Of a DNA stretch of 64,000 bases, positions 1-58,035 are shown piece after piece. Position 1 is the first letter of the stretch; the number at the start of each line of letters is the position of its first letter. A program made the position numbers and the translations under genes. The notes under the pieces were generated by a model. That model was not told the DNA's origin and did no database searches. It was given only the letters and a program-made list of their open reading frames with translations. Source of the DNA: Microthyrium microscopicum (lineage: Eukaryota); the NCBI GenBank assembly GCA_010405405.1, contig MU004230.1:1150627-1214626 (forward strand). The letters are read 5' to 3'.

Positions 1-172
1 CAGGATCGTATGTGAGCAATGCGCCGCATTGAATCAGCCTATCTTCCAGGTCGTGTAAATCATCTGTTGAGATATCATCTGCTACGATGAATACTGGTGG
101 TAGCTCAGATAAGTCTAGTTCATGCTTCTCATCTGGCGCTGGTGATGAGCTAAAGCCACGCGTGGAAGGCAT
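1..172 (-). CDS. 5' end of a family X DNA polymerase (Pol lambda/mu-like, BRCT-type N-terminus); runs off the window edge
   Basis: Manual translation from ATG at 172: MPSTRGFSSSPAPDEKHELDLSELPPVFIVADDISTDDLHDLEDRLIQCGALLTYDP. It resembles the LDLS.LPP.F....LH.LE..L...GA.LTYD start recalled from fungal PolX proteins. Not in the ORF track. Confidence 0.6.
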   Translation of the reverse strand, partial: MPSTRGFSSSPAPDEKHELDLSELPPVFIVADDISTDDLHDLEDRLIQCGALLTYDP

Positions 173-544
173 CTTGAGATTTATCCAAAAAACCGCGATG
201 CCGACACGCAAGCTAGGTATGACGCGTATCGTATATAATGTCCAGAAGTGCGCCTTAACAGTCTGTGGGATGAGCAACTAGTATAGTCGATATATAAGTC
301 GCGATTACCTATTTTGGTAGTGATAAGGGTATGTGCTCTGGTGGTATCATTTGTTCGTTAGTGGTCCAGTATCCAATCTGACATTGTCATTGAGGCTCAA
401 AGTAATGAATATAATCATTTCCTCGATCTTCACACGTCTCCATTCCTGTGACCAATTGACAAAAGGATGACGGAGCCAAGCTGCGATTTGAGCTCAGGTC
501 AGGTCAAGTGAAAGCTTTCGGAAAGATATCAGTGAGCCTTGTGC

Positions 545-583
545 TGAGGTAATAAGGTGAGGTAATAAGGTGAGGTAAAAAGG
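545..583. repeat. 13-bp tandem repeat x3 (TGAGGTAATAAGG)
   Basis: tgaggtaataagg tgaggtaataagg tgaggtaaaaagg in the divergent intergenic region. Confidence 0.85.
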
Positions 584-829
584 TATATTTCGTCTAGAGA
601 TGATGAAGAATGCAGGATGGGGAAGTGGGAAAGAGGTACCTGTGATGAAGTGAAGTCATGGAAAACCAGGATTCATTATAGGCGAGGTTCAATACCCCGC
701 CCAGCCACGATATGCAAATGGGAAGGTCACCTGTTTCGTCCCAAGAATCGTATGTCTTCTACTCATCTTGCATCCAACCTCTAAGCTTTCGGCAACATTC
801 GCCATAAACTGTAATCTGCTGAAAGAGGC

Positions 830-2203
830 ATGTTTAACATCAATTTCAATCCTTCCAAATGGATACCAAACTTTGGCTCCGCTGCCACTACGGTGATTAA
901 GCTACCCTCTGTGGCAATTGATGACATCGAGACATCGACGGACAGAGTTGCTAGGCGACTGAAGCATCTCATCTTGGCCAACCATGCCAACCACTCTATC
1001 CTATATCATAAACTGGAATTTCACAATCACACGGCACATGTAAATGGTCCGTCAAACTGTTTTATTGCTGTCCAGCTTACCTATTGTCAAGGCCTTGGGC
1101 GCTGCGTATTTGCTAGGAGGAACGGCAGAACATCTTACGGATATATACGATGAAGAGATCAGAGAGCTAGAGTCCTGGGAAGACGCACCTGGTGAAATCA
1201 GTGCCGACGACTGGAGAGACTACCTAGGCAAGAAAGAGTACGCATCCTCTTGAGTTAAGGACTAGTACTGACAGGTCAGATATCAACGGGCCTATGTTGA
1301 CTTCTTTGAAGACCAAATGGTCACACATTCTTATCACTGGAAAGAGCTCATCCAAGAGTACCTATTCGAAGGCGAAAAGCCGTTGGTCAACAATCTGATA
1401 TCAGGTCGTAAGTTGACATTTCGGACGTTTACGCCTCAGCTGCTCATTACCTAGTCGCCCACAGCATGATACATACTGGCTATGCTCTAGAACTAGACTC
1501 CAAGACACTGGCTATCGAAGCTCTAGCCATGAGTTGCTGCTGTTATAATTTTATGCACAAATATCTAGATGACCCAACATACAGCCAACGCACCTCAACC
1601 CAGCCACCATCCTCACTACTCAACATAATGCATAAGATAAGAGAGGATAAACGATTCGATGAGTCGCAGAGCACACCCGGCGAATTTGACCTCGAAAAGC
1701 TTTTTGCATCACGCGAAGATGAGATTTTGGAATACTGGAACGCATGGGATCTGAGCGACCCAACCGCGCAATTCCAAGAATCACAACGTGTCGCTGCCGC
1801 TCTCGTCGCCGGTTCAAGTCCACGCGAAGGAGACTACAATTTCTTCTCCGCACATGTTCTTACCAGCTCCCACGCAGTCCGCGTCCTCCTGCCTCTTGTG
1901 CCAGCGCAACATCAGCTCTCGCTGGTCCGCCAATGGGCATTGTTAACCATCGCTGTGTACATTCTACAAGGCCGGCCACCAATTTCGACCGAAATGATCT
2001 GTAATTTAGATGTGGGCACGTCGAAGTGGAAGCATGTGAGACATTTGGCGTTGAATGGTAAAGGAGCGCTTGATGCACATTATGTCAAGGTTTTGAGGGC
2101 GCTGGTGGTGGCGGGCCAAACTTGGGGGGATGAGGATGAGCTGTTCTTGAAGGCGGCGATCAGGTTCGGGGAGGGATGGGATAATTGGAGATATGAGAAG
2201 TAG
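830..2203 (+). CDS. Questin oxidase-like / MGS207 (HypA-like) oxidoreductase, 4 exons
   Basis: Introns 1040-1091, 1238-1279 and one near 1407-1454 join the ORF pieces into one protein with FHNHTAH..ALG, YQRAYVDFFED, HSMIHTGYALE, NFFSAHVLTSSHA and DAHYVK motifs typical of the family. Confidence 0.8.
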
Positions 2204-3751
2204 TGAAGACTGAGCGCGGAGAGAAACCGCGGGATCAGTAAAGAACGGGTGGCAAGAGTTTAGTTGCGGGAAGATCGGACTCGAGATGGTGGCATGGCAA
2301 TCCCTAACTCCAGTCGTTATAACTTATGGTTTCCTTCACTGTTAGTTAGCATGTTGAAGTTCAAGTCGTCCATCACAAGTTGAAAGAAAACCCGATAGCT
2401 CACTTGTTGATATAATTCTACTCACCATCAACGATATGATATTCTGATACGTACATTCTTGACAGGTACTTAAGAGTCATGTCAGGTACAAAAACTACCG
2501 GCTGGCCGTCATGCACAAGAGAGTTATGTACCAAGCTAGATATCCCGTTATGCAGCCTATAGAAAGCTTAAGCTTGCTGAGTGATCATGTCATATCATCA
2601 TATGCATGCGGATCCAGCCGGGAGGAGGAGAGCTCAGCTGCCGCATTATACTATTCGAGGCAACGAAGAGAAACGTACGATAGAGACAGGGACTTAAAGA
2701 GCTGCCGGGGCCCCAAATGCATCCTCTTCACCTCCTCCCGAATTTTCCTATCACGTAGGGCCGACGATCTTTGAATCTTCAGAATCAAGATTGATACCAA
2801 GTAACACGATACAAGCATTCCGCCAAGGCGATAGCTCCCCATCCCTACAAAGCACAAGGTCGCAGACCAGTTACCGCTCCCTCAAGCTGCGGCTCAACAG
2901 CGTACTAGTCTCACGAACAATCCGTCATCCGTCCGCATCCAGAAAAGGTGTCACGCTGGATCCTATCAAAGACCGCCAAGATTGGACTAGTTGTGGCCAA
3001 AAAAACCGGATCCACTCAGAATAGGAATCTGTGGGTGGCGCAAAGGAAATTTCCAGGTTGATCGGCAGAGGGGCGTACAGTACCGAATTGTCAAAGTGCC
3101 ATCATTTGTCGCAGTAATTTGTCGATATCAGGTTATCAACCTTGGAAAAACAGCTAGGAATTGGGCTTAGATCTCGATTGTCCATGCTGTCTGGTGTCAG
3201 ACTACTACAAGAAAGTGCTCAAACTTGAAATAAAGTACAAAGTGGTGGTTTGTGACAAGATCAGAAACAGAGGGTTGGTACGTCACAGTTTAGCCAATGC
3301 CAAGACTGGCAAGTCCATTGTTGACACTTGACACAGCTCCGGTTGACAGGCGTTGCTCTCTCGCAGATTCCCAGCGCTCCCAGCAAAATTGCGACCCAAT
3401 ATCGACCCCCCGACTGAAAAAAGCCCGCACTCTGTACTCTTCCGTACTTTAACGCCGCAAGCCTGTGCCTGTCCAGCCTCTGACGATTCTCGGTTTATTT
3501 CAAGGAACCAAGATTGTCCCAGCCTGTCAACGCCTCAAGTTGTCACAGCGCCCTGTTCGCCCGCTTAGTTAACTGGCACCTGGCGCCTTCGACCAACGAA
3601 TCCACCAACCTTTCCCTTTTCCTCTCCATCATCACCTTCATCCTAAAATCCCGATAATTCTTCTGGTCTAATTGCCTTTGACAGTCTCTACTGAGGTTGT
3701 CAACCAATCCCTATACTCAATTGCCTGTCTTGATTTTCATGATACCCTAAA

Positions 3752-6700
3752 ATGTCGTCCCTCAAGAAAGCACTTCACAAAATACGGCACCCTTCAGTCT
3801 CCGGCGACACTTCTCCCAAAGACTCCAATGATGCCGCCACCAGCGAGGTTTCCTCCGTCACGAGCGCCCCCGTCATTGGTAACGGCACCAACACTTCTCG
3901 ATCTAACAGCGTGAGAAAAGCCAAAACCGATGTCTTCCCTGAAAATGGCTCTCCACGTTCCAGTGGTGTGTTCAGCAGAGGTCGAATTGGCTCAACCAAG
4001 GAACGTACCCATACCCACAGCCCCATTCGCGCCGTCAAGGAGAAGCTTGGTCTTGTCACCAGCGACTCGAGCGACGACGGAACCGTTCCGCTCAATCGAG
4101 ATGGCGAAAAGGCTAGCAAGAATCAAATGCGAAAGTTTGAAAAACAAGCCGATCAAGAACGACGGGCCGAGGCTCAAAGAGAAAAGGATCGTGAACTTGA
4201 GGAAAAGAAGCACCAAATGGAAGAGGAGGCAGAAAAGGAAGAAACTCCTGAGCAGAAAGCAATGTATGGAGTTTTGCCAATCAACAATTACTCTGGAGTA
4301 GAGAAGCGCGAGCCACGACTCTTACTGGAGAACATTGAAAGCTCAATGATTGGAAAAGAGGTTGTATTCCGAGCGCGAGTTCACTCAATGCGCAAGATGA
4401 GCGCCAAGCTAGCCTTCTTCCTCCTTCGTCAAAGCACTCGTTCAATCCAAGGCGTTTTACAACAACATGGAGACGTAACAAAATACTTTATGTACTGGGC
4501 TGAGAGACTAGACGTCGAAACTGTTGTTCTAGTCCGAGGCATTGTTCAGGAACCAAAAGCAAAAGAAGGCAAGGTTCTCGGTGCCCATGTTCATGATTTC
4601 GAAATCATGATCACTGACATGCACGTCGAGGGCAAAGTCACAAATGCTCTACCATATACAGTCCAGGAAGACGAAGTCAATCCCAAAATGTCAACTGATG
4701 GGTCCGACCCTCGGGCTGCCGTGTCACAACGAGTTCGAATGGCCAATCGTGTTATTGATTTACGTACCAACTTCTCGCAAGCCATCTTCCGAATTCAGTC
4801 CGGGCTCTGCTATGGCTTCCGAAGCTATTTGGATGAGGCAGGATTTGTTGAAATTCATACTCCAAAATTGCAAGGTGGAGCCACTGAGTCTGGAGCAAGT
4901 GTTTTCAAAGTCGACTATTTTGGTCGAGGTGCCTTCCTAGCACAAAGTCCTCAGTTGGCCAAGCAAATGAGCATATCTGCCGACTTTGGCAAAGTGTACG
5001 AAATTGGTGCTGTATTCCGAGCAGAAAACAGCAACACCCATCGCCATCTTACAGAGTATACTGGTCTAGATCTGGAAATGGCCATTGACGAGCATTATCA
5101 TGAAGTTTTGCGTGTGCTTGATGCTACATTCAAGTCCATGTTCAAGGGCATCTACGAAAAATACCGCCATGAGATTGACATTGTCAAGACACACTTCCCT
5201 CATGAGGATTTAATCTGGCTGGATAAAACTCCTATCCTGCCGTTTGCGGAAGCTATCCAGATGCTCAACGAAACCGGCTGGCGAGATGAGCACGGCAATC
5301 CTCTACCACTCGACGAAGATCTTGGAACAAGAGATGAGATTCAACTCGGAAAGGTTGTGAAAGAAAAGTATGGCACCGACTACTACGTTTTGGACAAATT
5401 TCCCATCTCTGCGCGACCATTCTACGCTATGCCAGACCCTACCAATCCGCTCGTCACCAACTCATTCGATATCTTTCTTCGTGGTCAAGAAATTCTATCT
5501 GGTGGACAACGTATTCACGATGCTGAAATGCTGCTTAAGCGGTTATCGGATGCAAATGTCGACCCGCGATCAATGGAAGAATACATCCAAGGCTTTGAGT
5601 GGGGTTGCCCTCCTCACGGCGGTGGTGGTATTGGTCTCGAACGTATGCTCATGTTGTTGCTGAATCTCGGCGACATCCGCAATGCTTCCCTATTCCATCG
5701 TGATCCTCGATCCTTCCCTGCGAGACCAGCAATGGTCCAGCTCAGACATCCAGAAGCAAGCACCATGCATCCACCATGGGAAGGCAAGGACCGTGTTACT
5801 GCTGGAGAAGACTTCCAGCCACTCGAAAAGCTCATTGCCAACTATGGAGATGCTTCGAATACATCCTGGTTGGAACCACGCACCAAGATCTGGCGAGACC
5901 CATTTACTGGAGCTGCTGTTGGTTATGCTAATCAAGATGGATTCGCAATCATTGTTGGCGATCCCCTTTGTCATGAGTCTCAGTATACTAAGACTATCGC
6001 TGGCTTCTTGAAACATGTCAAGAAGGAGGAGGGTCTAAAACCATTGTGGCTACTTGTTGGTCAGCCTGTAGAAGAAGTTTTGGCTGATCGCTTCAACTGG
6101 CGAACATTCTCGGTGACCGCCGGACAACGCCTCAATCCAGCAAACGCAACGAATCTTGACGCAGAGGTTATGCGCAAGATTCGCCACGCAGAGAAAGAAG
6201 GTGTCAAGGCTATCGACATTCCACTTGGCAAAGCTGTACCCGACGAGGTGAAAGAGAAGGTTGATGCCCGTGTCAAGGACTGGCTGGCCGGCCGCAAAGG
6301 CAAACAAGTGCATTTGACCAACATCCATCCATGGCAAGATCAGGAACATCGTCAATACCATTACACAGTCGACAAGGAGGGTACCATTGGAGCTCTCGTA
6401 GTCTTTGCTCAACTCAGCCCTGAGCATGGTTTCCAGATCAAATACTCCATGGACTTCCCAGGTGCTCCCAGTGGAAGCATTGAGTTCCTCATCACCCATT
6501 CGCTCAAGCGTCTTGCAGCTGATGGTGTAACGAACTGCACATTCGGCGATGGTGCAGCTCACCACTTGACTCCTGGCCACAACATGAACAGCACCAAGGT
6601 CAAGATGCTAGGCAAAGCATACTCCGCAATTGTTAATGAGCTAAAATTGACAAACAAGAGCGAGTTTCGTGAAAAGTTGGGTGCGAAGGACGATCCCATG

Positions 6701-6775
6701 TATATTTGTTACCCTGCGCATGGTCTGGGACCAATGGCAGTTAAAGCGCTGTTATCATTCTTCGAGGATCCTTAG
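3752..6775 (+). CDS. erdS: Aspartyl-tRNA synthetase fused to a C-terminal DUF2156 aminoacyl-transferase (ergosteryl-3beta-O-L-aspartate synthase), 1007 aa, intronless
   Basis: OB-fold (VVFRARVH), class II AspRS motifs (IHTPKL, LAQSPQLAKQ, VFRAENSNTHRHLTEY, EILSGGQRIH, PPHGGGGIGLER), then about 350 aa with LIANYGDASNTSW, IIVGDPLC, APSGSIEFLI and FREKLG typical of DUF2156/GNAT transferases. Confidence 0.9.
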   Translation: MSSLKKALHKIRHPSVSGDTSPKDSNDAATSEVSSVTSAPVIGNGTNTSRSNSVRKAKTDVFPENGSPRSSGVFSRGRIGSTKERTHTHSPIRAVKEKLGLVTSDSSDDGTVPLNRDGEKASKNQMRKFEKQADQERRAEAQREKDRELEEKKHQMEEEAEKEETPEQKAMYGVLPINNYSGVEKREPRLLLENIESSMIGKEVVFRARVHSMRKMSAKLAFFLLRQSTRSIQGVLQQHGDVTKYFMYWAERLDVETVVLVRGIVQEPKAKEGKVLGAHVHDFEIMITDMHVEGKVTNALPYTVQEDEVNPKMSTDGSDPRAAVSQRVRMANRVIDLRTNFSQAIFRIQSGLCYGFRSYLDEAGFVEIHTPKLQGGATESGASVFKVDYFGRGAFLAQSPQLAKQMSISADFGKVYEIGAVFRAENSNTHRHLTEYTGLDLEMAIDEHYHEVLRVLDATFKSMFKGIYEKYRHEIDIVKTHFPHEDLIWLDKTPILPFAEAIQMLNETGWRDEHGNPLPLDEDLGTRDEIQLGKVVKEKYGTDYYVLDKFPISARPFYAMPDPTNPLVTNSFDIFLRGQEILSGGQRIHDAEMLLKRLSDANVDPRSMEEYIQGFEWGCPPHGGGGIGLERMLMLLLNLGDIRNASLFHRDPRSFPARPAMVQLRHPEASTMHPPWEGKDRVTAGEDFQPLEKLIANYGDASNTSWLEPRTKIWRDPFTGAAVGYANQDGFAIIVGDPLCHESQYTKTIAGFLKHVKKEEGLKPLWLLVGQPVEEVLADRFNWRTFSVTAGQRLNPANATNLDAEVMRKIRHAEKEGVKAIDIPLGKAVPDEVKEKVDARVKDWLAGRKGKQVHLTNIHPWQDQEHRQYHYTVDKEGTIGALVVFAQLSPEHGFQIKYSMDFPGAPSGSIEFLITHSLKRLAADGVTNCTFGDGAAHHLTPGHNMNSTKVKMLGKAYSAIVNELKLTNKSEFREKLGAKDDPMYICYPAHGLGPMAVKALLSFFEDP

Positions 6776-7177
6776 AGGTAGTCTAAAAGGAAATGAAATT
6801 GCCGGTGGTTGAAGTTGTAAAAAGGCTAGAAAAGGTATTTTCTTTTTCGTGTTGATATCCAGACTTGCTGGGTTTTGGGCAGGTTACTGTTAGGATGATA
6901 CTCTATGTAGCGTAGACCGATAATACTATTCTGTACGTTTAGCTTGAATTCAAAGCTCGTTATCTAGTGACTAAAGAAATGATGGTCTTCGAAAAAATAC
7001 ACAACGTGTCTGGAGTTGGTGTAGATCTTGCTGAACCACGGCCATTGTGATTGGCTCTTTTTGTTTGATATTTCCCCAGCTTCATTTCATGCTAGAGTAC
7101 TCTCCAGGCGCCAGTACCCATCAATCCACCATAATTTCCTAGTATGAGCTTGGGAAATTTTCAAGAATGATCATACG

Positions 7178-9955
7178 ATGGATTTCTGGTCACGACTGAT
7201 CGGAGGAGCTCGCCTTGGTGATGGAAAGGCATCTGCAGCTTCGAATCCCCAGCAACGACTCCAACGGTTCCGACGGCATTTCGAACAGATCCGAGTATAC
7301 TAAATGGAGTTCTTGTCGATGGGTTCTTGCTAATACTAGATCTAGAGTACCTACGATAAAACTCCCCTCCTTCAGTCCGATTCTGCGGCCGCTGAGTCCA
7401 TCCGCTCTAACCTTTCACGCCTCACCACAATCCTTCAAGATGAATCGCGAGCGCCCCAACCACACACCTGCCTATCCTTTGTCGACTCCGCCAACCTCTA
7501 CACCACCATCGGCCGTATCGGCGCCGTCGCCCAAAATGAAGGCATCATTCGTGAAGCCGCTGCGTTCTTCTCCGTCCTCGTCGACAGCGACGATGAAGAA
7601 TTTCTGTCCAACCGCCGATTCGCGCGCGCACTCATGACATTTGTGGACCGCACCTGTGGTTCCGGGAATCTCTATGTTGGTGAAGAGACAGAAGGCGAGA
7701 TCATCGAGCTACTCTTTGGCATCGCGGCCAAGATACGGCTAGAGCCACAACTGCTGAACGTGTGGTTTTCAACGAGCGGCGCGCGAGCGCCTGTCGCGGG
7801 CGATCAGGGGTTACAGAATGCATTTGTGGGAGTTACGTCTAAAGAGGACTTTCCGCTATGCTATCAGCTCATTGACCATGTGCACCATGAAGGTCGGATG
7901 GGAGATTTTGCGCGCACAGGACTGCTATATGTGTTTGAGACGGCGTCGCGGTCGCAAGCGCTGGAGCAGTGGATTATTGAGAGTGATCTACCGACACTGA
8001 TGGCTAGTGGGCTGGGCGCGCTATACAGCCAGTTGAGTAGGAAGCTGTCCATCATACATCCCCAAAGAAGCCTCCCGGTCATATTGCAGCTGTCGGATTA
8101 TCTATCTTTGGCTCCACCGGTGGAAGCGGAGAGCTTATTTTCGGAATATCTGCAGGGTCATTTGGAGACTTTTCTGTCTTATTTGACGTTTTGGCAGGAT
8201 GTTTTGGAGCATTGCACTTCTGCGGATGTCAAACAGACGCTGCTGGATCATTTCCAGATTCTATTTTTGCAGCAGCTCTTATATCCATCTCTACTGGAAT
8301 CTTCGGATGTAGATGGAGGCTCTTCAGTAGCGGTGCTGACATATGTTCGGCAAATACTAGTAACATTGGATCATCCAGAATTCGTTCACCTGGTATTACA
8401 ATACCTCTTAGCATTACCGCAAGAAGTCGGGATGGAGATGTCGGTTGTCTCACTGTCACATTATGCGGCCAACAAGCGGAAATCGCTGTTATTATTGGCC
8501 AAAACGACAAATGAAGAAGACGATGCCAGCCCGGATCTATTCAATCTGGCTGATTTAGTCCAAAGCAGCATTCGGTCGAGTAATGTACAGACTACAATTG
8601 CTGCTTTGAAGCTCATGACCATACTGCTACACAAAGATCACAAGTACGCTCTCAATTCGATTATCAACACCGAACGACCACTCCAGGAAAGCACTCAAAG
8701 AACGTATGGTGGCCTCAATGCGGAAGTTCAAGCATATATTACCGTAGCTGAGGACATTGCTGGCGAGACTGGTCTTGACGAAGCCTATGAGAGCCACGTC
8801 AAAGATGCCCAACGACATGTAGAGCTTCACTGCTGCTCAACTCCTCTCCTGACCTTAGAAAGTCTTGGAATACCATCTATGAATGCACTCTCCAACGCAA
8901 ATGCAAGTAACGCTACAAATGCTCCACCACACGCTCTCCAACATGGCGACCTCTTCATCACCCAAATACTCTCGCTTGTCGAAAACTTCCTCACCAACAA
9001 CGTCGAGCTCAACCTGAGTCTGACCGAAGTCATCCTCACTCTCGCATCTTGCCCCCAACTTCGCCTGGAAGACTGGGCCGCCGTTGATCCACAGCAGTAC
9101 CACTTCACCGAATCTGCCCCAGCCAACGACGATGGCGATCTCACTGATCTCCAACGTCTTCAACTTGCGCGCCGCCAACCCACTTGGTCGCCGAAAGCAA
9201 CTCCCCTCCTGCTCAATACCTTCCACCGCCTCGCTACCAACCTTACATCCCTCCGCCCCCTTTTCCCCTCCCTCTCGCAGCTCATCAACACCCGCAAGCA
9301 AGCATTCCGCCTTCATGACGAAATCTCTGAAGCCATCATCGCCAGTCCCGCCTCCCGGCCACCTCTCCCATCTACACCTTCACGTAACGAATTCCCAGCC
9401 ACGCCAACTCCCTCGCGGTCCCTCGGTGAGGCGCTACAGTCACGCCTCTTCCCTGGACGCACCGCCGACTCTTCACCCAGATCCGACTCACCAAGAGGAC
9501 TTTCGCCGCGAGGACGCACGCCTGCCCGTCCAGACCTGCGCGTTGGTCCAACAAGTTCGCCAAGCCCAGGGCAGCGCGCAGCAAGTTTCTTTGGCAGTCC
9601 AGCAGCCGGGCACGCAGGATCACCAGCAAGGACGGTGAGTGGGGAGGCAAGGCCGGTGGTTGTGGGGCATGCGCCGGAGGAGTTGTTGAGTGATATTATT
9701 GAGGGGGCAAATTCGGAGTTGTTGGGGAAGAAGATCATGTTTCCGCTCCAAAGCACTGGCAAGGTACAAGAAGGTGATGTAGCTGAAGAGTCAGAGGTGG
9801 GAGAGGAGGATGAAGAGAAGGAGACTGGACCAAAGATTGAGGTCAGTTTGAGCCATGTGTTGACGAATATTGTGATTTTACAAGAGTTTATACTCGAGCT
9901 GGCGGCGGTGATGCAGGTGCGCGCAAGCTTATTCGGGGAAGTCGTGTTTGCTTGA
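7178..9955 (+). CDS. FHIP / retinoic-acid-induced-16-like protein (Hook complex component), 2 exons
   Basis: ATG 7178 MDFWSRLIGG; intron 7295-7345 joins in frame to the 7634 ORF. Motifs GDFARTGLLY, LMASGLGALYSQLSR, LLYPSLLESSD and SHVLTNIVILQEFILELAA. Confidence 0.85.
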
Positions 9956-10151
9956 GATTTGCGCGATGGCAGCTTTGTATGCTGCTTTGATACCCATATA
10001 GAATTGAAGCTGTGCAGAAGATATCACTCGAATCTGTAAGTCTACGGATATATGCAAGAAATGGACGATATCGTGAATATCGAATCTGGGGTATATATTT
10101 GATCGATTCATACGTTCCATTTAGTTGTTGTTTCCCACATACTCTGATATT

Positions 10152-10258
10152 TTCCAGCGAATGCGAAAAGTCCCATCGAGTGCGATAATTCCCATTGAAT
10201 GCGATACTACTCATCAGGTCTAATAGGTCCCATCGAATGCGATGTCTCCCATCGTAGC
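10152..10258. repeat. Degenerate 19-bp minisatellite, about 5.5 units (consensus TCCCATCGAATGCGATNNN)
   Basis: Units start at 10152, 10171, 10190, 10209, 10228 and 10247, an exact 19-nt period. Confidence 0.75.
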
Positions 10259-11347
10259 TGAAGAATACAAACAATGGACCGCTGCTACATATCCGGGGCA
10301 GGGGATAAACAAAAGTTACAACATCAACTTGGCCATTGTTGTAACTTGTATATCCAAGTCTAACTTATTAGCACTTACGTATCGAACTATGCGGGGGTTT
10401 CAAAGTAAAAGCCTTTCGCCTTGCCAAACATTAATACTGACGAGAAAAAAGTGAAAGCACGACAGAGGTTAATATCAAAAGCTCGTCATTTGTTCCGACT
10501 TCACCCGCGACCAACCAAATGCCAGCTCCGATGGCCCGACGTTGATGCAATGGGAGCTGCAGGTCCAAGTTTAAAGGATCTGCGCATTGCTTGTCGTCCT
10601 GTTGTTGTCACCAAAATCTTTACAACTCCGTCACATGCCCTTTCCAATTCCTACTGCGCCTGGTCCAGCCCTTCACCAGTTCGCATCTCCTAAACGCGAC
10701 TGGTTGTTCGCCCTACCTGGTTCCGTTGTCGGCCCTCCAATGCTTGTGCTTTAGAGCTTGTGAGCTGAAGAGCCCAGGGGCGGAAGACCTTCACGATGAG
10801 GCTGTTGAACTGCCAAATAGTATTGATACTACACGAAGTAGAGTAGAAAGGTCGCGTGTTGAGCAAGGAACTTAGTTCGCGTGCCCAAGAGGCCTCCCTC
10901 TAGGAGTAGCAATGGCAGTAGCCGGTTGGCCGGAAACGAAAAGTATTGATCGTGGAAAAGCATACCATTACCCCGGCTGCCGCACTTAGTCTCTCTCGAC
11001 CTTGGATGCAGCTTGTCAGTTTCCACCAACCCTCCCGACCGAGGCAAAGGTTCATTTCGACCCAAGTACCGCCGGCGCACTTTTTTTTGTACTTCCGAAA
11101 CAAAATCTTGGTTCTATTCTTCTCTTCTTCTAATACATCAACTTCTTTCATTTGGCAGTGTGTCCTGTTTGGTGTTCGTTACTCTCCACTCCGTCCGTTC
11201 TTAAAGCTCCAGTCGCATCGTGAACCCCTTGTCAGCGAGCTTGTACAGCTACAAACCACAATACAATTGAACAGTCACTATTCGTTTTTGAGACTGGTGA
11301 CTTTGTCCCCTCGATCCTCGTAGCTTGGAAACGTAAAAGAAATCGCC

Positions 11348-12680
11348 ATGTCGAAAGAAACAAGAGCTCCCGCTTCGGCGGCGACCAATCTTATAGGTAT
11401 TACAACCAGAAAAGAGCTCTGAAGCATCATACTAAAAGTGTTCTCAGCCGGTGGAGGTGCTGGAATGATGGAAGCTCTCATATGTCATCCTCTAGGTATT
11501 TCTTACAAGCCAACAACCAAAACTGTTATTAACAGAATGTCTAGATACAATCAAAGTCCGCATGCAGCTATCACGACGTGCGCGAGCTCCTGGTGTACGT
11601 AGAATCCCACCCTAATGATCAGACGAGTCGCGTAGAGTTCAAGGAGAACCACCTAGATTCGAAGCCCTTCTGGACTGTTTAAAATCGGAAGCTAATATTC
11701 AAGCTAGGTAAAAGCGCTTGGATTCATAGGAACTGGTGCCTCGATTGTAAAGAGAGAAACCGCGCTTGGTCTATACAAAGGTCTCGGAGCTGTTCTGACG
11801 GGTATCGTACCGAAGATGGCTATTCGATTTACCTCGTACGAGCAATATAAGCAATTACTGGCAAAAGATGGAATGACGACGGCTGGTGGTACTTTTATTG
11901 GTGAGTTTGTCTTGACGTTCAGTCGTAGGAGCAACGAGGTTGAAGATTGATCATTTCCGAGACCTTAGACCAGCTTTTCTGTTTCAAGTCATACGTTAGA
12001 AGATGCTAATTCATTGGATAGCCGGTCTCGCAGCAGGTGTCACAGAAGCAGCGTTAGTGGTAACACCAATGGAAGTCATCAAAATCAGACTTCAAGCTCA
12101 ACAGCACTCCATGGCTGATCCTCTCGACATTCCGAAATACCGCAATGCCGCACACTGTTTATACACCGTAGTCAAGGAAGAAGGCCCTATGACATTGTGG
12201 CGAGGAGTGTCACTTACAGCATTAAGGCAAGGCACAAACCAAGCTGGTATGCTTTATATGAACACTTTTCAATCAGATTACAGCACTAACCCGTATACAG
12301 CTAACTTCACTGCCTACTCTTACCTCCGAACGAAATTAGCAGAGCACCATAAAGGGGAAGCTATTCCTGGATGGCAAACATCCATTATAGGACTCATTTC
12401 CGGTGCAATGGGTCCCTTCTCCAATGCTCCCATCGACACCATCAAAACCCGTCTCCAAAAAGCCACCGCTCAACCAGGCGAATCAGCCGTCAAACGAATC
12501 GTCAATATCGCGTCAGATATGTGGAAGACAGAAGGTGTACAGAGTTTCTACAAGGGAATCACACCCCGAGTGATGCGTGTTGCTCCAGGCCAAGCAGTTA
12601 CCTTCACCGTGTACGAATATGTTCGAGCAATCTTGGAAAAGACAAAAGAAATGCCGATCGCCGACAAGTTTGAGGAATAA
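11348..12680 (+). CDS. SFC1: Mitochondrial succinate-fumarate carrier, 6 exons
   Basis: Spliced: MSKETRAPASAATNLIAGGGAGMMEALICHPLDTIKVRMQLSRR...GIVPKMAIRFTSYE...VVTPMEVIKIRLQAQ...PKYRNAAH...NAPIDTIKTRLQK...GITPRVMRVAPGQAVTF; three PxD/ExxK carrier signatures. Confidence 0.9.
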
Positions 12681-12896
12681 GCTTCCATAACGGACTGGCT
12701 ACCAGATTTCATATTCTCATTTTTCATGTTGAAAGCATTTTGAACTGGTGTTTGGCCATGCAGGACTCTGAACGATTCAAGAGACCTAGCATTACTGTGT
12801 AGAGAAAATCTGGGCAGCATGATATACGTGCTGCTACATAGCTTTGGCGATTCGGATCTGTGTATTAATTGATATCCTATAAAACATCAATTCAAA

Positions 12897-13553
12897 CTAA
12901 GCTTTCGACACGACTTTTCTCACTGTGTCCAAATCCAGCTCCCCCTTCTTACCCCAGCCGCCCTGTCCACTCTTGACTGTAGGTCTGAACTCTTCATACA
13001 TATGAAAGGCTGCTTTATTCAAGTCCTCAAGACCATCTGAACTCCAGCTCTGCAGACTTTCTTCAAACACTTTCCTCACGTCCTCATACCGATCACCAAA
13101 CTTCTTGCTCAGCAACTCCTCCTTCGCAGGCTTCATATCGCTCTTCTTCAGCTTGAAATGCATGACCTCCAGACGCTCAGATTTTGCTGACTTTTTGGTC
13201 GAGTCTTTCTCATCTTTATCCTTCTCTTCAATCACGCCGATAGATTTGCCTTTAGCCACTGCACAGAGTCGCGCAACTGAGGTTCCGGCGCTCAGACATG
13301 TGGACCAAGGTAGATCCGGGTGGACTTTGTGTGCTACACATGCGCCCCATAGCTGAAGGACTGGAGAGCGATTGATCAAAACAACCGAGGAGGATGATTT
13401 TGATGGAGTCTTTTGCCGCTTCGAAGTTGTAGTTGATTTTGCTTCAGAGGTATCAGGTTCCTTGCGTTTGCGAGAGACGTTGGCTGGAGTTTTTGTCTTT
13501 GCTGGAGCTTTCGATGCCTCAGCCTTTGAGGCGGCGGACCTAGTTGTGACCAT
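12897..13553 (-). CDS. Hypothetical protein, 218 aa; basic disordered N-terminus plus globular domain
   Basis: Single ORF; NLS-like RKRK; globular part INRSPVLQLW...MYEEFRPTV.SGQGGWGKKGELDL. Confidence 0.75.
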   Translation of the reverse strand: MVTTRSAASKAEASKAPAKTKTPANVSRKRKEPDTSEAKSTTTSKRQKTPSKSSSSVVLINRSPVLQLWGACVAHKVHPDLPWSTCLSAGTSVARLCAVAKGKSIGVIEEKDKDEKDSTKKSAKSERLEVMHFKLKKSDMKPAKEELLSKKFGDRYEDVRKVFEESLQSWSSDGLEDLNKAAFHMYEEFRPTVKSGQGGWGKKGELDLDTVRKVVSKA

Positions 13554-14090: not shown

Positions 14091-15648
14091 TCAAAGACGA
14101 CTGGAATCAAGTTCTGCGGGGTCAGGCATCCATTTTCGACGCTTCGCAGGTCTCTCGCCGTCTTCATCATTCTCGTTCTGTTCAGAGCGTGCAGCAATAT
14201 CGAGACCTCTTGTAGCATAGGGAGCAGCCTCTGCACCAGTCGAAATCGCAGGTGAGGAAGCTCGTGCAGCGTCATCTTCCTTGACCTTGGCAAGCCATTG
14301 GACTTTCTTCCACCTGGAAGTGCCAGTGAGACTCAATCCACGAGCTACAAGCAGAGCTTTGATCTCCTTGATTGTCTTATGTGCATAGGGATCAGATAAA
14401 TCATCTTTGCTGGGGCGAGAAGTTTTGTTTAGTCGCGGTCTTAGAGTTTCGGCACGTGTTGGACTTGCTGCGAGAGTCGTAGATATATTTGCTTGCTTAC
14501 CAGCAGACTGAGGTCGTGGTGGAGTGGTTGGTTTGGCGATTTCATACCCAGTGCTATCATCAAAAAAGTCCTTCTCACTCCAGTTATCTTTGAAAGGTTC
14601 GTTTTCGCCGTCAAAGTACCCAGAATTGTCGGGGGCATCGGCCTCTTCGCCTTCTCGTATGATAGATTCCTCTTCAAGTTTAGTAGTCTCCGCCTCTTGG
14701 AGCAAAATTATCTGTTCTCGTATCCATCTGATGAGCAGCGAGTGGCCATATTCAGATACACCAGGCTTTCGCAGGCTGTGATAAAGCAGATACTCGATGA
14801 AAGTCAGCTTTTCTGACTGCTCTTTGGGGTCTTTCAAAAAGTATTTGAACGATATCCTGTTCGTTGTTGAAGAACTGGAAGATCCTAAAAAGCCGCCAGT
14901 TTCGCGCGATCTACTTGCAAGATACGGCCATAGTAGACGACCAAACTCTGGCGTTTTTTCATCTTTTGCGTTCCTGGCCTCCGTAGCAGATTCTTCTCTC
15001 ACTTCGTGCTGCGGCTTTTGGGAATCTTGAGCTTTGAACCCTTCCTCGTAAACCCCTAGAATGTTCGTGATTTGCCTTGGCAGCGGACCTTTGTCTCCTG
15101 GTTCCAGATATCCCTTGAAACTTTCAATCGCTTCTGGGCTGTCTTGGTTCCTGATGTTTTGTTGGAATGTACGGAATTGCATCCAATCCCCTAGCTGACG
15201 CATGAATACTCGCCATTCGGCAGAATCACCTTGCTGCCAATATGGCAATACGTATCCCCATTTGTCTTCATAACGATGTTGCAAGACAGTCGCATACAGC
15301 TGGAGTGGGTGTGAAGGTCTACCGCCTTCGCTCAACAGGATATGATATGCTTCACCCTCCTGTTGCTCTTCTAACTCCTTCACAGATAGCTCAGATTTGT
15401 CAAGCTTTGTTGCGTTCTTTGTATTTCCTTTACCCAGTCGAGATGACCAAGCTTGCTGCAATTCCGCAGAAAGGGTTGTTCGTTTGATAGTCGACGTGAC
15501 TGATATGTCAACTTCCTTGGTGAAGCGCTGCGCTTCTTCATCATCGTCCGACACTGCCGACCTGGTTCCAAAAAATTAGTTTATGATAACACGTTGAATA
15601 TGGTATAATTAAAACTTACCTTTTGTGTTCGTGGTGGATTTCCGACAT
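14091..15648 (-). CDS. Hypothetical protein, about 500 aa, with a C-terminal SAP-like helical motif and NLS; 2 exons
   Basis: ATG 15648 (MSEIHHEHKR); intron 15562-15619 (GTAAGT...CTAAT...CAG) joins in frame to the 487-aa ORF. Contains YAHKTIKEIKALLVARGLSLTG and RPAKRRK. Confidence 0.7.
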
Positions 15649-17250: not shown

Positions 17251-18279
17251 TTACTCATATATCCTGACACTGTTGATGAGCCAGTACACATCAGTGAAAG
17301 CTCCTGGGTTGTTGGTCACATACTCGTCGCAAGTAGGCGCGAGCTTACTGCAAACTGGGTTGCTTGACCAAACTCCACCAGCCCAAGCTCCACAGAAATC
17401 AGTGTTAATGATAACTTGCAAGTCCTTGAAGTGACTGGTGACGGCATTAGTTGCGAAAACAGCATTGGGGGTTCCCCAAGTGCTGCCGGTGCTTACGGTT
17501 GGGTTGGACAGAGAAGCTGCTGCGATATCAGCAGGAATCTTGTCCCGAGGGAAGAACCAGATTTTGATACCATCTGGTTGGATAAGAGTTGCGAAGACAC
17601 CGCCTCCGTTATTGTTGAAAGCGGTGCCATAAGAGCCAGCCGAGGGAACATCTTGAATACCGCAGCCAGAATTTGTTGGCTGGTCGGAAGCAGTGACGTC
17701 GCAGTTGGCAGTTACTATCTTACCTTTCATCGAGGCCTGGGTCTGGGTATCGTTGCTGAGCTTGATACCGGAGGTGGTATGCAGAGTATAGCTGTTGGCA
17801 TCTGCATTGTTGACACCTTCGAGAATATCAATCTCGCCAGACTTTGGCCAATCCGCGCCAGTACCAAGAAGCCAGAATGCTGGCCAAGATCCACAAACAG
17901 GGGCAGGCATGTGCAGAATGTCTACGATGACAAGGCCGAGGTTGACTTTTGGCTTGCTCTCAATTCTGACTGATTGTCTGCCATTGGGAGCCTTGTTCAC
18001 GGAGTCTACAGTCAGTAAGATGGGGTCTGTTGGGCCAGCATTTGGCACACCTTGAGCAAAGCCAGCGAGAGTACCGTTGGCCGTTTGGGCATCAACATAC
18101 TGGACGTGTCCATTGGTCGGATCAGGTCCAGAGTAGAAGTTCCACTCATCGAAGAAGTGGAGGCCAGAGAGATCATACTTCATCTGAAGCATGGTATCGG
18201 TAGGAAGTGCTAATGCACGCTGGATGAACGTGCTAAGAATGATTAGCGCGTGGATGAGATGCATCGTGAGTACCAGCAT
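17251..18279 (-). CDS. Secreted GH16 endo-1,3(4)-beta-glucanase (Lam16A-like)
   Basis: Signal peptide (start at 18279 or 18264), DPTNGHVQYV, GRQSVRIESK, CGSWPAFW, catalytic EIDILE, NTDFCGAWAG. Confidence 0.9.
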   Translation of the reverse strand: MLVLTMHLIHALIILSTFIQRALALPTDTMLQMKYDLSGLHFFDEWNFYSGPDPTNGHVQYVDAQTANGTLAGFAQGVPNAGPTDPILLTVDSVNKAPNGRQSVRIESKPKVNLGLVIVDILHMPAPVCGSWPAFWLLGTGADWPKSGEIDILEGVNNADANSYTLHTTSGIKLSNDTQTQASMKGKIVTANCDVTASDQPTNSGCGIQDVPSAGSYGTAFNNNGGGVFATLIQPDGIKIWFFPRDKIPADIAAASLSNPTVSTGSTWGTPNAVFATNAVTSHFKDLQVIINTDFCGAWAGGVWSSNPVCSKLAPTCDEYVTNNPGAFTDVYWLINSVRIYE

Positions 18280-18941
18280 CTTGTGATAAGATATCGTGCG
18301 GAAGTTAGAGATTTTGCTTGAAGTCGATTGCTGAATTGGGCCGCTTTCAAACGTTCTTTGGACAAGTCGCTGTAAACGATTTGATCTGACATTGCTAAGA
18401 TAACGATTGCAACGTCTTAAATGCTTTCGAAGAAGAGATATATAAAAAGATAGTATCATCAGTGCTCTCCTTTACTTGCGTGACTAGAGTCTTTATAGCC
18501 AGCACAAACAAAGAAATTCAGCGTCTTACATCGTCTTTTGGTAGATTGAGACAAAGTCTTTGTGTGTATCGTAGCTGACAGCCTACAGGTGCGCGATGAG
18601 AGAATTCGATACCGCAACAGTAAAACTCGTTAGGTCTACTTCTCTTTACTATGATACCGTTCTTCTATCTTCCCACAGTTTTTGTCGATCTATCCCGGCG
18701 AAACTCAAAATTAATTGCATGGTCCAGTCTTCGCCATTTGAAACTGCCTGCCTTTGCCTGCCATAGGATATATACAGTACTTTTCTTTCCATGATGATCA
18801 ATCAACCGGTAACAAGCATTGAAATAGACGAAATGATTCTGACGGACGGACCGTTATGTTCGCTCAGTCCGCAGGAATGAAGTAGCGATCGCTGAATAGC
18901 CACATTTATTGTATCACAGAAATATCTACCGGAGATGAGTA

Positions 18942-20190
18942 TCAAGCAATTCCTATCTCCTGCCAGAACTTCCATATTTCTGCAGCCACTTCGTCCGACA
19001 TTGATATGGGAAGCTCGTGTCCGACCTTGAATAAAACCATCTTGACGTTCTGCTCACCCAGCGCCTCTTTGATATCAGGCTCTGTATCTTCTCTGACAAT
19101 CTGAACATCATCTTCTCCCAGTAGGACGGCAACTTTGCGTCCAACAAGTCCATGATCATCTTCACCCACAGCTTCCAACCGTTTCCTGATCTGAGCCCAG
19201 CTTTGATGTTGACCGGAGAGAGGCGCATATTTCATTGAGCCTATCAAAGCGCTGGGGAAGCCTTGATTGTTATCAACCTGCCATTTCATTGCATGAAAGA
19301 CTCGCAGTAGTGCCTCTTGACCATTACTTTCGGAGGGAGTTTTCTGCTCAACCATCTCTGGTTGTACCTCTGTTGTGCGAGTTATGGGTTTTTGCTTTTC
19401 AGTAGAACTGCGAATGAGTCGCCGCAGTAATGAGCTTGGTAAGATGCTCTCGGCGATAGACATGAACCTGCGCATCATGCTTATGCGATGTCCTCTGATA
19501 AGTCCAGCTGGGGCTATTAGAACTAGAGACTTTACTGGTAAAGGAAAAGTTGCAGCAAAGTTCACAGCTAGAGCACCTCCCATGGAGTAACCGATTAGCG
19601 AGAATGCATTCACTCCTGTCCATGGGAGAGTGGATGAAGCCAGTACGCTCAGTATTTGAGTCATGTATAGGTGAGATGAATGGACAACTCCAATTGGTGT
19701 ATCCGAGAAGCCTCTTCCATACAGATCTGTTCAAGTTAGTCTTAGAGCTTTCAGTCTCAGATAACGTCAAACGAGCTGCATGGAAACCAAATTTCCCGAG
19801 TCTTTGGGCTTGATCGCCTAACAACTTACCAAAGAGCATCACTCGACATCCTTTCTCAACCAACTTTTTAGCTAGATCTACCAGTCCCACAGAGGGTATG
19901 CTGATTCCGTGCACTAGCAACACCTTCGGTCCATCCTCCGGACCAAACTCGTACACCCTGCAGTTTCCATATGGTGTACTGACAGTGCGTGCACCAGGTA
20001 GTGCATTTGGTGGGTAAGCAAGGTCAGAGATCTCGCTTGCACTCAATGTCGTTATCTTCGTCTCCAGTGGTGAAGGGGAGATGGCTACGTAAGCTGCTTG
20101 ACGGAGTTGGACGTTTCGAGCATAGGTGAAGCCTAGCACGGCTGAGGCGACGCCTATTGTGGCTGTTGACAGTGATAGATATGACGGCAT
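18942..20190 (-). CDS. Alpha/beta hydrolase with N-terminal membrane anchor, 2 exons
   Basis: Intron 19727-19829 restores MLFDLYGRGFSDTP; LLVHGIS oxyanion segment, GYSMGG nucleophile elbow, GEDD, VGHEL. Confidence 0.85.
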
Positions 20191-20933
20191 GATGATCTGC
20201 TCAAAGAACACGATGGTTCACCGGATTTAGTTTACAAAGATTCGTAGTTTGGAAGTGCGAAAGTTGCGTGTAGCTTTGATTATTGTGCTGGATGTAGGGT
20301 TTCGGCATTCAACTTCGTCTCATCGTGGTGAGAGTTCAGGGCGGAACTAAGCATCCTTAACTAATTCTAATTCACCCAATGCACCCCTGGGAACCTAAAC
20401 GAAATATTTTCAGCGAATCTGTCGTTCAAGTGTTTTCTGAGTAAAATGATCAAGTTCCTAGCGTCATAACTGTCAGGATTATTGGGTCAAAAACAGAAGA
20501 ATTGGTTACTGAATTATTACGACATTACGTATATATATTTGACAATAACGAGCCAACAGAATAACTGTTTTGATCCTATCAGCTGTGATAGTTCCCCCAT
20601 CCTTTATTCAATTACTCTACCGAGTGCTACATTTCTAAAGAGGGCTTTGACTTCTAAACCGACTATCGGATACGCAGAGATATACAGCATCTTTCACTTG
20701 GTAACAGAAGCTGTATGCCGACAACGACGAAAGAGGGCTCCATTTTATGTTGGAAGGTGATCTAGCCAAGTTTCCTTTCATGGAGGAGTTTCTAGACCTT
20801 GGCTTCGAAGAGAGATGGATTAACTTGGGCGGTTAGTCTGAAGTACTTGTCATAAGATTTTCAAATTCCAGTATTTCCTCGAACCTGGATGCTATAAAAG
20901 CAGAATATGTACAATCAGCCAAAAGCTTTCTGC

Positions 20934-47134: not shown

Positions 47135-48483
47135 CTTGATGTATGAGTAGAGATGGCTTTCGTACGACTAATGAAGGTGTTTCCTGGGGCGAACAAGTCA
47201 TCCAATGCCAAACATGATACCAAGAAGAGAAATGGCAGGGCGAATATCTGACGGCAGGTATTCGTGGTTGCAATAATATCGGCTACTGAGACTAAATATG
47301 GGGTTTTGGGTTGTGTGCTTTTGGGTATCAAGTAGCAATGCCGAAGCCACCAACGCAACTAAAGATATATGAAAAAGTTTCATGGAAGATGGAGATCTCC
47401 GCGCGGTACTTCTTCTTTGATACTTAAAGGAACGACAAATATTAGATAGGCTTAAGACATTGTATGCACTACCGCACTAACTCGGCATGGCTTGTCCCAG
47501 TGCAGATTGAATATCTGGTTGCACGAACCTCGTTGGAGCAAGATCGATGTATCCAGATACTTTGGTATCAAACCAAGCGTTTTACTGTACCTACCTGCCA
47601 CCGGAATAATAGTCGAGTGAGACAATACGACTCATATCTGCCAGCAAAGCTCGTCCGGTCTCTGAGCAACAGCGAGCACATAACGAGCCAACAATGGCCA
47701 AAGGTCAAAACAGGCGGTGTTGAACGGGTAAACGCTCCGACATCAAACATGGGAAACCAAGTAACAAAGACATGAGAACTGCAGAGCATTGTTCACGACC
47801 AGGACAAGGCTGGTTCAGGTTGAACGTGGACCTATAAGGTTTTGACAACCTTAAAAACTGCCCAACGCGACAACGCCCTGCCGGCAGACGCATGCCTCGC
47901 GAGAGTTCCTCAGCTCGTTGGTCCTGGCTGTTCGGTGGCAACATTGAAGACGGTGCTGACTGAACCATCGTCGCTTTGAGTGTACGATTCTGCAATGAAG
48001 GAGAAAGTTTAGAGAGTGATGAGGAGAGCAGGTTTGGGGGATGAGAAATTGAGAATGAGGTTGGGCAGATGGACAGGGGTCAGAAGCGTGCTTTGATACA
48101 TCCATCAATCCACCAAGGGCATAATTGGACATGATCTGCATGCATGTATAGTTCTAAAAGTTCGGTTAATAAGGTCACTTGGTAAGAATAGGTTTGGGCG
48201 TTGGTGATGGTATGTATCCATTTTGTTCCTTCCTAATAGTACTAAAAATTCCGAGTGTTGCCGTCGAATGACTTCAATGAAGATGCAATTTGATCAATCA
48301 TCAGATTCACAAACAATGCAACTCCAAGGCACGAGTTAAGTGAAATGGTTCAATTTTTTCAGAACCAAAGTCATGATATCTTGTAGACATGACAAATGCT
48401 AAAACGAACAAGGCCCTGCAAACCAGCTAAAACTACCCAGGCTGGTATCTCCGCATCAAAACATTGCCTTCTCACTACCATCC

Positions 48484-57120: not shown

Positions 57121-58035
57121 AGAATCAGGAGTAGTAGAATGTAAGAGAACGGGCTTAGATACCAGTAATATGAGACAACAAGGGCCACTAAACAGTTGAT
57201 TGAAGCAATGCATTTCCGCTCTTATGACCCGACGTTGTTATCTCGGCATGTAGCAGCCCACTAATCTCATCACTACTAGTAGTGAGGCTGTTCATATGAT
57301 GCCAATCATGCACAACTTCACCAGGCTGAGGTCGTGAGGGGTCACAGTGACTTGGGTAGCAATTACTGGGAGCCCGATAACCCAAAAGCAAGGCGTAGTA
57401 AGAAAGAGTAAATACCGGAAACCTTAAGCTTAGAATCTGGATGGCATGTGGGAGACCTGTTACGCAGTAAGGGAAGGATGACTGACGAGACAAGTAAGCT
57501 AGCTGGACTAATCAAGGACTTCTCAAAAGAAAGCAAGCCCTCTTTCTGGTGGCATGTACGTGTCTGTAGTAGCTTTGATTCCTTGACAACAAATAAATCT
57601 ACCAATCATCCATATATCGAAGCGTGGTGTTGTAGGCTTGCAGTGATGAAGGTCGGAACCATGAAGTGACATTCGGCTCATCGGATATTTGCACAGTGAT
57701 CCCACCACTCGTCCGGTATTACCCGACTTCAGTGCTGTATTCTAACCCATTAATTCACCAATTACTCCATCATGTAAGGAAGGCTTCATAATGGGAGTGA
57801 AGAACATGCCGCAGCACTGAAACACGATTTGAAAATGCAGAAAGAGCTTGGATTCTCGGGAATGGAAGCTTAGGGGCATCAATCAGGCAGCCCATATATA
57901 TCGCGAAAGGATCTCCTAAGCTCACAATTTTGGCAGGACCACTTGTTATACTAAAGACCAACATCATAAGTAAGCGGCCAGACGGTTATTAGTAGGAGAG
58001 GTTTTACTTCTGCATACGACAGTCTTCACTTCAAA

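Follow-up and report, generated by a model that had tools for sequence, protein, structure and literature searches.

A probable ergosteryl-3beta-O-L-aspartate synthase (ErdS) gene, without an adjoining erdH, in a Dothideomycete-like ascomycete

The 64-kb stretch of Microthyrium microscopicum DNA considered here (contig MU004230.1, positions 1,150,627 to 1,214,626; called the window below and numbered from its first letter) carries, at 3752..6775 on the forward strand, a gene that with a probability of roughly 0.92 encodes the ergosteryl-3beta-O-L-aspartate synthase (ErdS) of a Dothideomycete-like ascomycete. The ground for this reading is seen directly in the architecture of the protein, its folds, its orthology to Aspergillus fumigatus ErdS and the conservation of its functional residues, while the synthesis of ergosteryl-aspartate (Erg-Asp) by this protein, its operation in trans on a dimer and its expression are predicted by analogy with the characterised enzyme. 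To our knowledge, ErdS together with ErgS constitutes the only eukaryotic family that diverts aminoacyl-tRNA to the modification of lipids.

The identity had been put forward in an earlier reading of the same DNA (the original prediction), and it is borne out by full-length orthology to the characterised A. fumigatus enzyme. That reading had also described the gene as a new instance of a described system, with which we concur, given that the family is structurally solved and that ErdS has already been reported in Dothideomycetes (PMC8913301). The gene is a further copy of this known family, and the understanding of the system is unchanged by it. Nonetheless, its identification as ErdS corrects the label "aspartyl-tRNA synthetase" that is common to most relatives, and predicts that the organism produces Erg-Asp. 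In the fungi studied to date, ErdS affects sporulation, germination and stress tolerance (PMC13219428).

Gene model and domain architecture

The coding sequence at 3752..6775 (+) is intronless and comprises 1007 codons followed by a TAG stop at 6773-6775, so that the single stop-free open reading frame (ORF) described in the original prediction stands, with 0 internal stops over 1007 amino acids (aa). An in-frame TGA lies 9 nt 5' of the ATG, and an A occupies position -3. Because relatives of 998-1056 aa span 100 % of the ORF, and because the first residues (M-SLKKAL) are kept across them, we consider both the intronless model and the start to be sound.

The N-terminal half of the folded protein is an aspartyl-tRNA synthetase (AspRS). 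Its anticodon-binding OB fold, aa 204-292 (4361..4627, +), is matched by Pfam PF01336 (tRNA_anti-codon) at 37.1 bits (Pfam cut-off 27) and is built of beta strands in the predicted model; its class II catalytic core, aa 326-650 (4727..5701, +), is matched by PF00152 (tRNA-synt_2) at 242.5 bits (Pfam cut-off 25) and is likewise recognised by NCBIfam and Foldseek. The NCBIfam profile aspS_nondisc, which describes AspRS of the archaeal/eukaryotic type, extends over aa 194-653 at 428.9 bits (cut-off 368.4), and a complete class II AspRS at about aa 185-655, as first supposed, is thereby upheld. The AspRS signatures are found as QSPQ at 398-401, FRAEN (motif 2) at 422-426 and GLER (motif 3) at 628-631. 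Conservation was counted by script over this protein and 76 of the 119 relatives listed in a protein search, giving 77 rows, a hand-picked alignment that leaves out partial-coverage rows and many unnamed relatives. In these rows QSPQ 398-401, R423, E425, N426-T429, R431, H432, Y558 and R631 are invariant, H430 excepted.

A linker, aa 651-690 (5702..5821, +), was delimited by alignment to the solved ErdS chain 9w9f and joins the synthetase to the transferase; from aa 656 to 690 the mean frequency of its top residue within the family is 0.80. The transferase itself begins with a GNAT I subdomain on the side of the sterol pocket (aa 691-797; 5822..6142, +), placed by alignment and by a model of the domain and bearing Y698, T704, S705, W706, E708 and R710, with G791 at the position of A. 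fumigatus (Afm) E731. There follow a positively charged alpha(+) helix at aa 804-815 (6161..6196, +), evident as a helix in the model and in the residue counts, and a GNAT II subdomain at aa 821-1007 (6212..6772, +), placed by alignment and model, which carries the CCA pocket and the catalytic residues. Pfam PF09924 (LPG_synthase_C/DUF2156) matches aa 702-939 at 53.6 bits (Pfam cut-off 27.5), and alignment with solved ErdS extends the domain to aa 1006, in keeping with the DUF2156-type C-terminus of about 350 aa that had been described. The profile search suggested at that time, for tRNA-synt_2 together with DUF2156, thus returned both above their Pfam cut-offs.

In a predicted model of the full-length protein (mean predicted local distance difference test, pLDDT, of 74.9) the AspRS and transferase halves are both confident. 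When this whole chain was searched with Foldseek, AspRS structures only were returned, with yeast 1eov/1asy at template modelling (TM) scores of 0.82-0.83 on the target and 45-46 % identity; entries for ErdS were not among the whole-chain matches in this library, which extends to 2026-04-08. We also folded aa 690-1007 alone, from a 23-row alignment (pLDDT 84.5, predicted TM score 0.75). For this lone domain the best match was LysPGS 4v36 (E 1.8e-16, TM 0.72), followed by MprF 9goe/7duw, the DUF2156 domain 5vrv and AlaPGS 4v35, and then by aminoacyl-tRNA-dependent peptide synthases and FemX; against LysPGS, MprF and AlaPGS the TM scores were 0.69-0.72, with E values of 1e-14 to 1e-16 and 14-18 % identity. 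Helix 804-815 lies, in the model, between the two beta-sheet halves of the transferase. By these lone-domain matches the C-terminal third has the double-GNAT fold of aminoacyl-tRNA transferases. The presence there of a DUF2156/GNAT domain, on which the original prediction had staked its case, is hence indicated both by the Pfam match and by the double-GNAT model, with LysPGS and MprF as its leading matches.

The N-terminal extension (aa 1 to about 175) consists of two parts. The first, aa 1-110 (3752..4081, +), is of low complexity as judged by pLDDT and composition: 47 % of its residues are S, T, P, G or N, its net charge is +6, and pLDDT falls below 50 at aa 1-94 and 99-110. Even so, it contains conserved islands (M-SLKKAL, SPR-SG-F, HSPIRAVKEKL and PLNRDGE). 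The second, aa 111-175 (4082..4276, +), is a charged helix domain recognised by model, motif and alignment, in which a long helix at aa 123-163 is predicted with pLDDT 75-88. The start of this helix is overlapped by ASKNQMRKFE (aa 121-130), which matches xSKxxLKKxx, and within the SKNQ[M/L]RK motif S122 and Q125 are invariant. A helix with a motif of the xSKxxLKKxx type clamps the tRNA elbow in A. fumigatus ErdS, as described in 2026 (PMC13219428); in that enzyme the helices at aa 59-102 span from the anticodon stem to the elbow and retain tRNA-Asp, and truncations cut Erg-Asp synthesis 12- to 18-fold (PMC13219428, section 14). Helix 123-163 is the counterpart of this tRNA-Asp elbow-clamping helix. 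The disordered, charged extension of some 180 aa that had been noted from the sequence is accordingly present, and aa 1-110 are indeed of low confidence, but its charged part is a confidently predicted helix and not a disordered segment.

Orthology to A. fumigatus ErdS and conservation of functional residues

A sequence search of the PDB placed three chains at the top, 9w9f, 9w9e and 9w9g, at 1108-1133 bits; according to the data-availability statement of PMC13219428, 9W9E/F/G are the cryo-electron microscopy structures of A. fumigatus ErdS. Chain 9w9f_A (1132.6 bits) aligns from residue 45 to 947 with aa 105-1006 of this protein, while yeast AspRS, the next in the search, scores 442 bits and covers aa 169-654 only.

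Residues defined experimentally in the ErdS paper were mapped by hand from the 9w9f alignment, in which the chain numbering is that of the paper (R749/K750/R752/R753, W785, H795). All 25 of the 25 mapped residues match the residue that orthologs hold, which in 2 cases is held by about half of the 77. In the CCA pocket and catalytic site, Afm W785, R789, K790, G791, Q793, H795, F913, R914 and K916, among which H795 is the proposed general base and R914 the proposed oxyanion residue (PMC13219428), correspond to W844, R848, K849, G850, Q852, H854, F972, R973 and K975; each is present in 77/77 rows, save G850 in 76/77. The sterol cavity retains S705, Q895 and K897 (Afm S644, Q836 and K838) in 77/77 and W706 (Afm W645) in 75/77, and has E708 in place of Afm D647, this position being E in 77/77. 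The alpha(+) helix, which binds tRNA in ErdS (PMC13219428, section 10), presents R808, K809, R811 and H812 at Afm R749, K750, R752 and R753; position 812 is H in 69/77, and position 808 is K in 9 orthologs. Each residue whose mutation lowered ErdS activity is therefore present here, D647 as E708 and R753 as H812. On the synthetase side, the AspRS residues that bind the acceptor and were mutated in section 15 of PMC13219428 correspond to Q398, S399, N426, S427, N428, H430, R431, H432 and Y558, of which eight of the nine are invariant columns; H430 is present in this protein and lies outside the invariant or near-invariant set. In all, this protein differs at 21 of its 1007 positions from a residue that 90 % or more of the relatives share, mostly by conservative changes.

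Every one of the listed relatives (119/119) carries both PF09924 and PF00152. Among the matches listed, the best show 69-71 % identity and the best named ones 60-67 %, and the four named relatives for which a lineage was looked up are all (4/4) Dothideomycetes. The expectation that automatic annotation would yield a plain AspRS holds for most of the named listed relatives, which are entered as aspartyl-tRNA synthetase, aspartate-tRNA ligase or hypothetical protein; it fails for 6 of the 119, which carry the JGI name "ergosteryl-3beta-O-L-aspartate synthase".

For comparison of loci, we used 80 metagenome loci (L001-L080) that encode relatives, taken as distant at 55 % ErdS identity or less and as close at 56 % or more. 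A tree of the AspRS domain (FastTree, LG+gamma, 25 rows) was built from this protein, 13 close ErdS, 9 distant ErdS loci (longest tblastn segment) and the 2 unfused AspRS loci L071 and L079. In this tree the protein is sister to P0002 (0.872) and groups with P0004 and P0009 (1.000), and the close ErdS clade splits from the remaining rows at a support of 1.000. Identity over the AspRS domain is 64.8-75.8 % to close ErdS, 51.9-59.7 % to distant ErdS and 46.7-49.4 % to unfused AspRS. As read from the AspRS domain, the tree shows that this protein is nested deep in the fused clade; it does not show the monophyly of ErdS.

Proteins of 534-545 aa that combine a partial PF00152 with a full DUF2156 domain, 40-46 % identical to the transferase domain here, recur among the relatives (P0276, P0281, P0283, P0287, P0292-P0294, P0332 and others). 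Some of them sit on very long contigs (e.g. Fusarium oxysporum, 4.4 Mb), so that truncation at a contig end is not the explanation; they may be either faulty gene models or shortened paralogs of ErdS that lack the anticodon-binding domain.

Proposed mechanism

The mechanism proposed for this protein is taken by orthology from A. fumigatus ErdS (PMC13219428, sections 10, 11, 13, 14 and 15). The AspRS half (aa ~190-655) would bind tRNA-Asp through its OB-fold anticodon-binding domain, activate aspartate with ATP and esterify it to A76, while the tRNA would be kept on the enzyme, a dimer, by the transferase domains together with the N-terminal helix (aa 123-163). Next, the acceptor arm would swing over to a double-GNAT domain (aa ~691-1007), probably the one carried by the other subunit, where the alpha(+) helix (R808, K809, R811 and H812) and the CCA pocket (W844, R848, K849 and K975) may be expected to receive it. 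There, H854 would activate the 3beta-OH of the sterol and R973 would stabilise the transition state, such that aspartate is esterified to ergosterol to give ergosteryl-aspartate.

Evidence against ErdS identity, and alternative readings

Several observations weigh against the identification as ErdS. The model loops at aa 370-400 and 420-436, which belong to the active site, are of low confidence. In the AspRS-domain tree, the junction of the two unfused AspRS with distant ErdS has a support of 0.091; of the phylogenetic check that had been suggested, it is then the nesting within the fused clade that stands, and the separation of unfused AspRS from distant ErdS that does not. At Afm E731, a position of the predicted sterol cavity, this protein has G791 where 75 of the 76 relatives have E, and this is the sole departure among the 21 that touches a named functional site. 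Last, erdH, which encodes a hydrolase of family PF07859 with the triad S153/D277/H307 (PMC7334510, PMC13219428), is divergent from and adjoins erdS in most ascomycetes (PMC7334510, sections 9-10; PMC13219428, Discussion), and PF07859 had no match in the 96 ORFs of at least 110 aa in the whole 64-kb window.

The completeness of the AspRS half, with all of its signature residues, and the finding of no other AspRS in the window could be taken to mean that the gene encodes the housekeeping cytosolic AspRS, serving mainly in protein synthesis and merely extended by a C-terminal domain, and a dps1 deletion in yeast can be partly rescued by ErdS (PMC13219428, section 14). However, the window is uninformative on the remaining genome, and a separate AspRS is stated to be kept by all ErdS fungi (PMC7334510, PMC13219428); moreover, the AspRS domain is 52-76 % identical to fused ErdS against 47-49 % to unfused fungal AspRS, and the N-terminal and transferase domains, which sequester tRNA-Asp in ErdS, are conserved. 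We regard the housekeeping role as extremely unlikely. It is also conceivable that changes in the sterol cavity have produced an ErdS-derived enzyme with an altered acceptor, be it another sterol or another lipid: besides G791, this protein has F894, adjoining the essential Q895, where 75/76 relatives have W, and D933 where 96 % have G, and section 12 of PMC13219428 bears a title that calls the use of sterols by ErdS promiscuous. Yet mutation of E731 had a slight or non-significant effect in ErdS (PMC13219428), A. fumigatus ErdS itself has M at the position of F894, and the cavity residues of strongest mutational effect (S705, W706, Q895 and K897) are unchanged, which together render a change of acceptor improbable in our estimation. 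The lack of the partner gene at the locus would be in line with an unexpressed or decaying copy, but a 3-kb frame that is intact, 986 of 1007 positions without any departure from a residue shared by 90 % or more of relatives, the retention of all functional residues, and a Questin_oxidase-like neighbour that is also found beside erdS in L003, L009/L010 and L033 speak so consistently for a maintained gene that we give decay hardly any credence. The identification as ErdS is thus the reading that we carry forward.

The erdH partner and the locus

In A. fumigatus the two genes form a bigenic erdH-erdS cluster (PMC7334510, PMC13219428). In the window, the upstream intergenic region (2204..3751, unstranded) holds no divergent erdH. 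A set of 98 further ORFs (45-109 aa; 1-3760 and 6700-13000) likewise gave no PF07859 match. Across the 64 kb, ten ErdH probes derived from the loci of relatives gave no tblastn match at E<=1e-3, and five more, among them A. fumigatus ErdH and two Dothideomycete proteins, gave a best tblastn E of 4.4 over the same span. The probes are judged to be genuine ErdH because the L045 hydrolase is 69 % identical to an A. fumigatus Af293 protein and because the 13-row probe alignment shows no variation at S153, D277 and H307. An alpha/beta-hydrolase gene (Hydrolase_4, Abhydrolase_6) is situated at 18945-20217 (-), 12 kb downstream of erdS; it falls outside the PF07859 family of ErdH, and ErdH probes match it at chance level only (E 7.4). 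There was also no tRNA-Asp gene and no second AspRS in the window; the canonical AspRS and ErdH would be encoded elsewhere in the genome.

The loci of relatives place this arrangement in context. Where upstream DNA extends over 2 kb or more, a divergent upstream ErdH is found in 13 of 18 distant loci, the five without it being L055, L066, L073, L075 and the unfused L079; L074, with a shorter upstream flank, carries ErdH as well. By comparison, none of the 16 close loci with at least 2 kb upstream (some 12 distinct, as four pairs look like resampled sequence) has ErdH there, and it is found in 0 of 43 close loci anywhere in their available DNA. The linkage of erdS to erdH depends on clade. An exhaustive profile search, together with look-ups of names, was then used to find ErdH in named species, and gave full-length ErdH-like proteins in two Dothideomycetes, Lineolata rhizophorae (460.7 bits) and Eremomyces bilateralis (423.0 bits), with intact triads and 39-45 % identity to A. 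fumigatus ErdH. In both species they lie on contigs other than that of ErdS (1.16 vs 1.51 Mb in Lineolata rhizophorae and 1.59 vs 0.25 Mb in Eremomyces bilateralis). The orthology of these two proteins to ErdH is putative, being read from score and triad only. ErdH has probably not been lost in this clade, and erdS and erdH are most likely unlinked in it; the distribution of ErdH in Dothideomycetes may already be documented in the species tables and figures of PMC7334510.

An unlinked locus of this kind naturally invites the question of how, with no promoter in common, Erg-Asp homeostasis is controlled. It is possible, if rather unlikely as a whole, that in the Dothideomycete-like clade erdS has left the shared-promoter bigenic cluster with the result that synthesis and hydrolysis of Erg-Asp are regulated separately, that the clade-specific low-complexity N-terminal extension of about 110 aa, conserved islands included, has become a replacement module for regulation or localisation, and that G791 shifts the acceptor preference.

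The profile search for ErdH also returned high-scoring proteins of 425-536 aa (P0364-P0367, P0370-P0373 and P0379-P0382) in which the profile matches in 2-3 stretches, split near position 180-200, and a large insertion in the hydrolase of some lineages is deduced from this splitting. A strong match of 436 bits (P0368/P0510), on contigs of 12 and 67 Mb, is entered as the liverwort Calypogeia fissa, which could reflect either a transfer or the presence of fungal DNA in the plant assembly. P0378, a further match at 406.6 bits, belongs to a genome bin of Pycnora praestabilis, a lichen fungus of the Candelariomycetes.

As for the neighbours, the next gene upstream of erdS is Questin_oxidase-like by Pfam, with exons at about 1044-2203 (+). 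The same kind of gene precedes erdS in L003, L009/L010 and L033 at 45-54 % identity by tblastn, with weaker tblastn matches in L032, L035 and L036. Downstream lies a RAI16-like gene (7346-9955, by Pfam), which was found in 0 of the 80 loci. Farther along the window, four ORFs had no Pfam match at E<=1e-5: 14094-15575 (-; 494 aa), 17254-18471 (-; 406 aa), 45305-47167 (-; 621 aa) and 57970-59076 (+; 369 aa).

Comparison with known systems

Yeast Dps1 (1asy/1eov) shares the anticodon-binding and catalytic folds of this protein but is without the transferase domain of 350 aa that is present here. The combination of a class IIb aminoacyl-tRNA synthetase with a DUF2156 lipid transferase in one chain is shared with LysX (NF002821), in which the order is reversed, the synthetase being C-terminal: positions 578-1091 of the LysX profile match aa 125-644 of this protein. 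LysX acts on lysine and phosphatidylglycerol. Membership of NF002821 was rejected, as the score is 66.1 bits against a cut-off of 742 and the match is confined to the synthetase half of the profile. The double-GNAT DUF2156 fold itself is that of LysPGS 4v36, AlaPGS 4v35 and MprF (7duw, 9goe). Bacterial aaPGS/MprF enzymes likewise transfer the aminoacyl group of an aminoacyl-tRNA to a lipid hydroxyl, their acceptor being a glycerolipid, and MprF has no synthetase but, at its N-terminus, a membrane flippase domain. An MprF/aaPGS identity was likewise discarded, with no flippase domain found in this protein by Pfam and 14-18 % identity to the solved domains.

ErgS, ergosteryl-3beta-O-glycine synthase, is a homologous DUF2156 transferase that also acts on the 3beta-OH of ergosterol and depends on an essential alpha(+) helix (PMC8913301). 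It is free-standing, however, without a synthetase, and uses Gly-tRNA-Gly made in trans (PMC8913301), whereas the transferase here is fused to its AspRS; the specificities of ErdS and ErgS are described as having no overlap (PMC8913301). ErgS was absent among the 119 listed matches to the transferase domain (shorter proteins), all of which are ErdS fragments or truncated forms, and an ErgS identity for this protein is ruled out by the complete AspRS fused upstream.

The closest system is A. fumigatus ErdS, which has the same order of N-terminal helix, AspRS and double-GNAT transferase, and the same catalytic, CCA-pocket, alpha(+) helix and key sterol-pocket residues and N-terminal helix motif. 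Relative to it, the protein described here has 60 additional N-terminal residues (1007 vs 947 aa), its gene has no adjoining erdH, and it has H812 for R753, E708 for D647 and N857 for E798, which are the norm of its own clade, as well as G791 for E731, which is peculiar to it. The only departures from the described system are therefore the unlinked erdH, itself a feature of the clade, the longer low-complexity N-terminus and G791.

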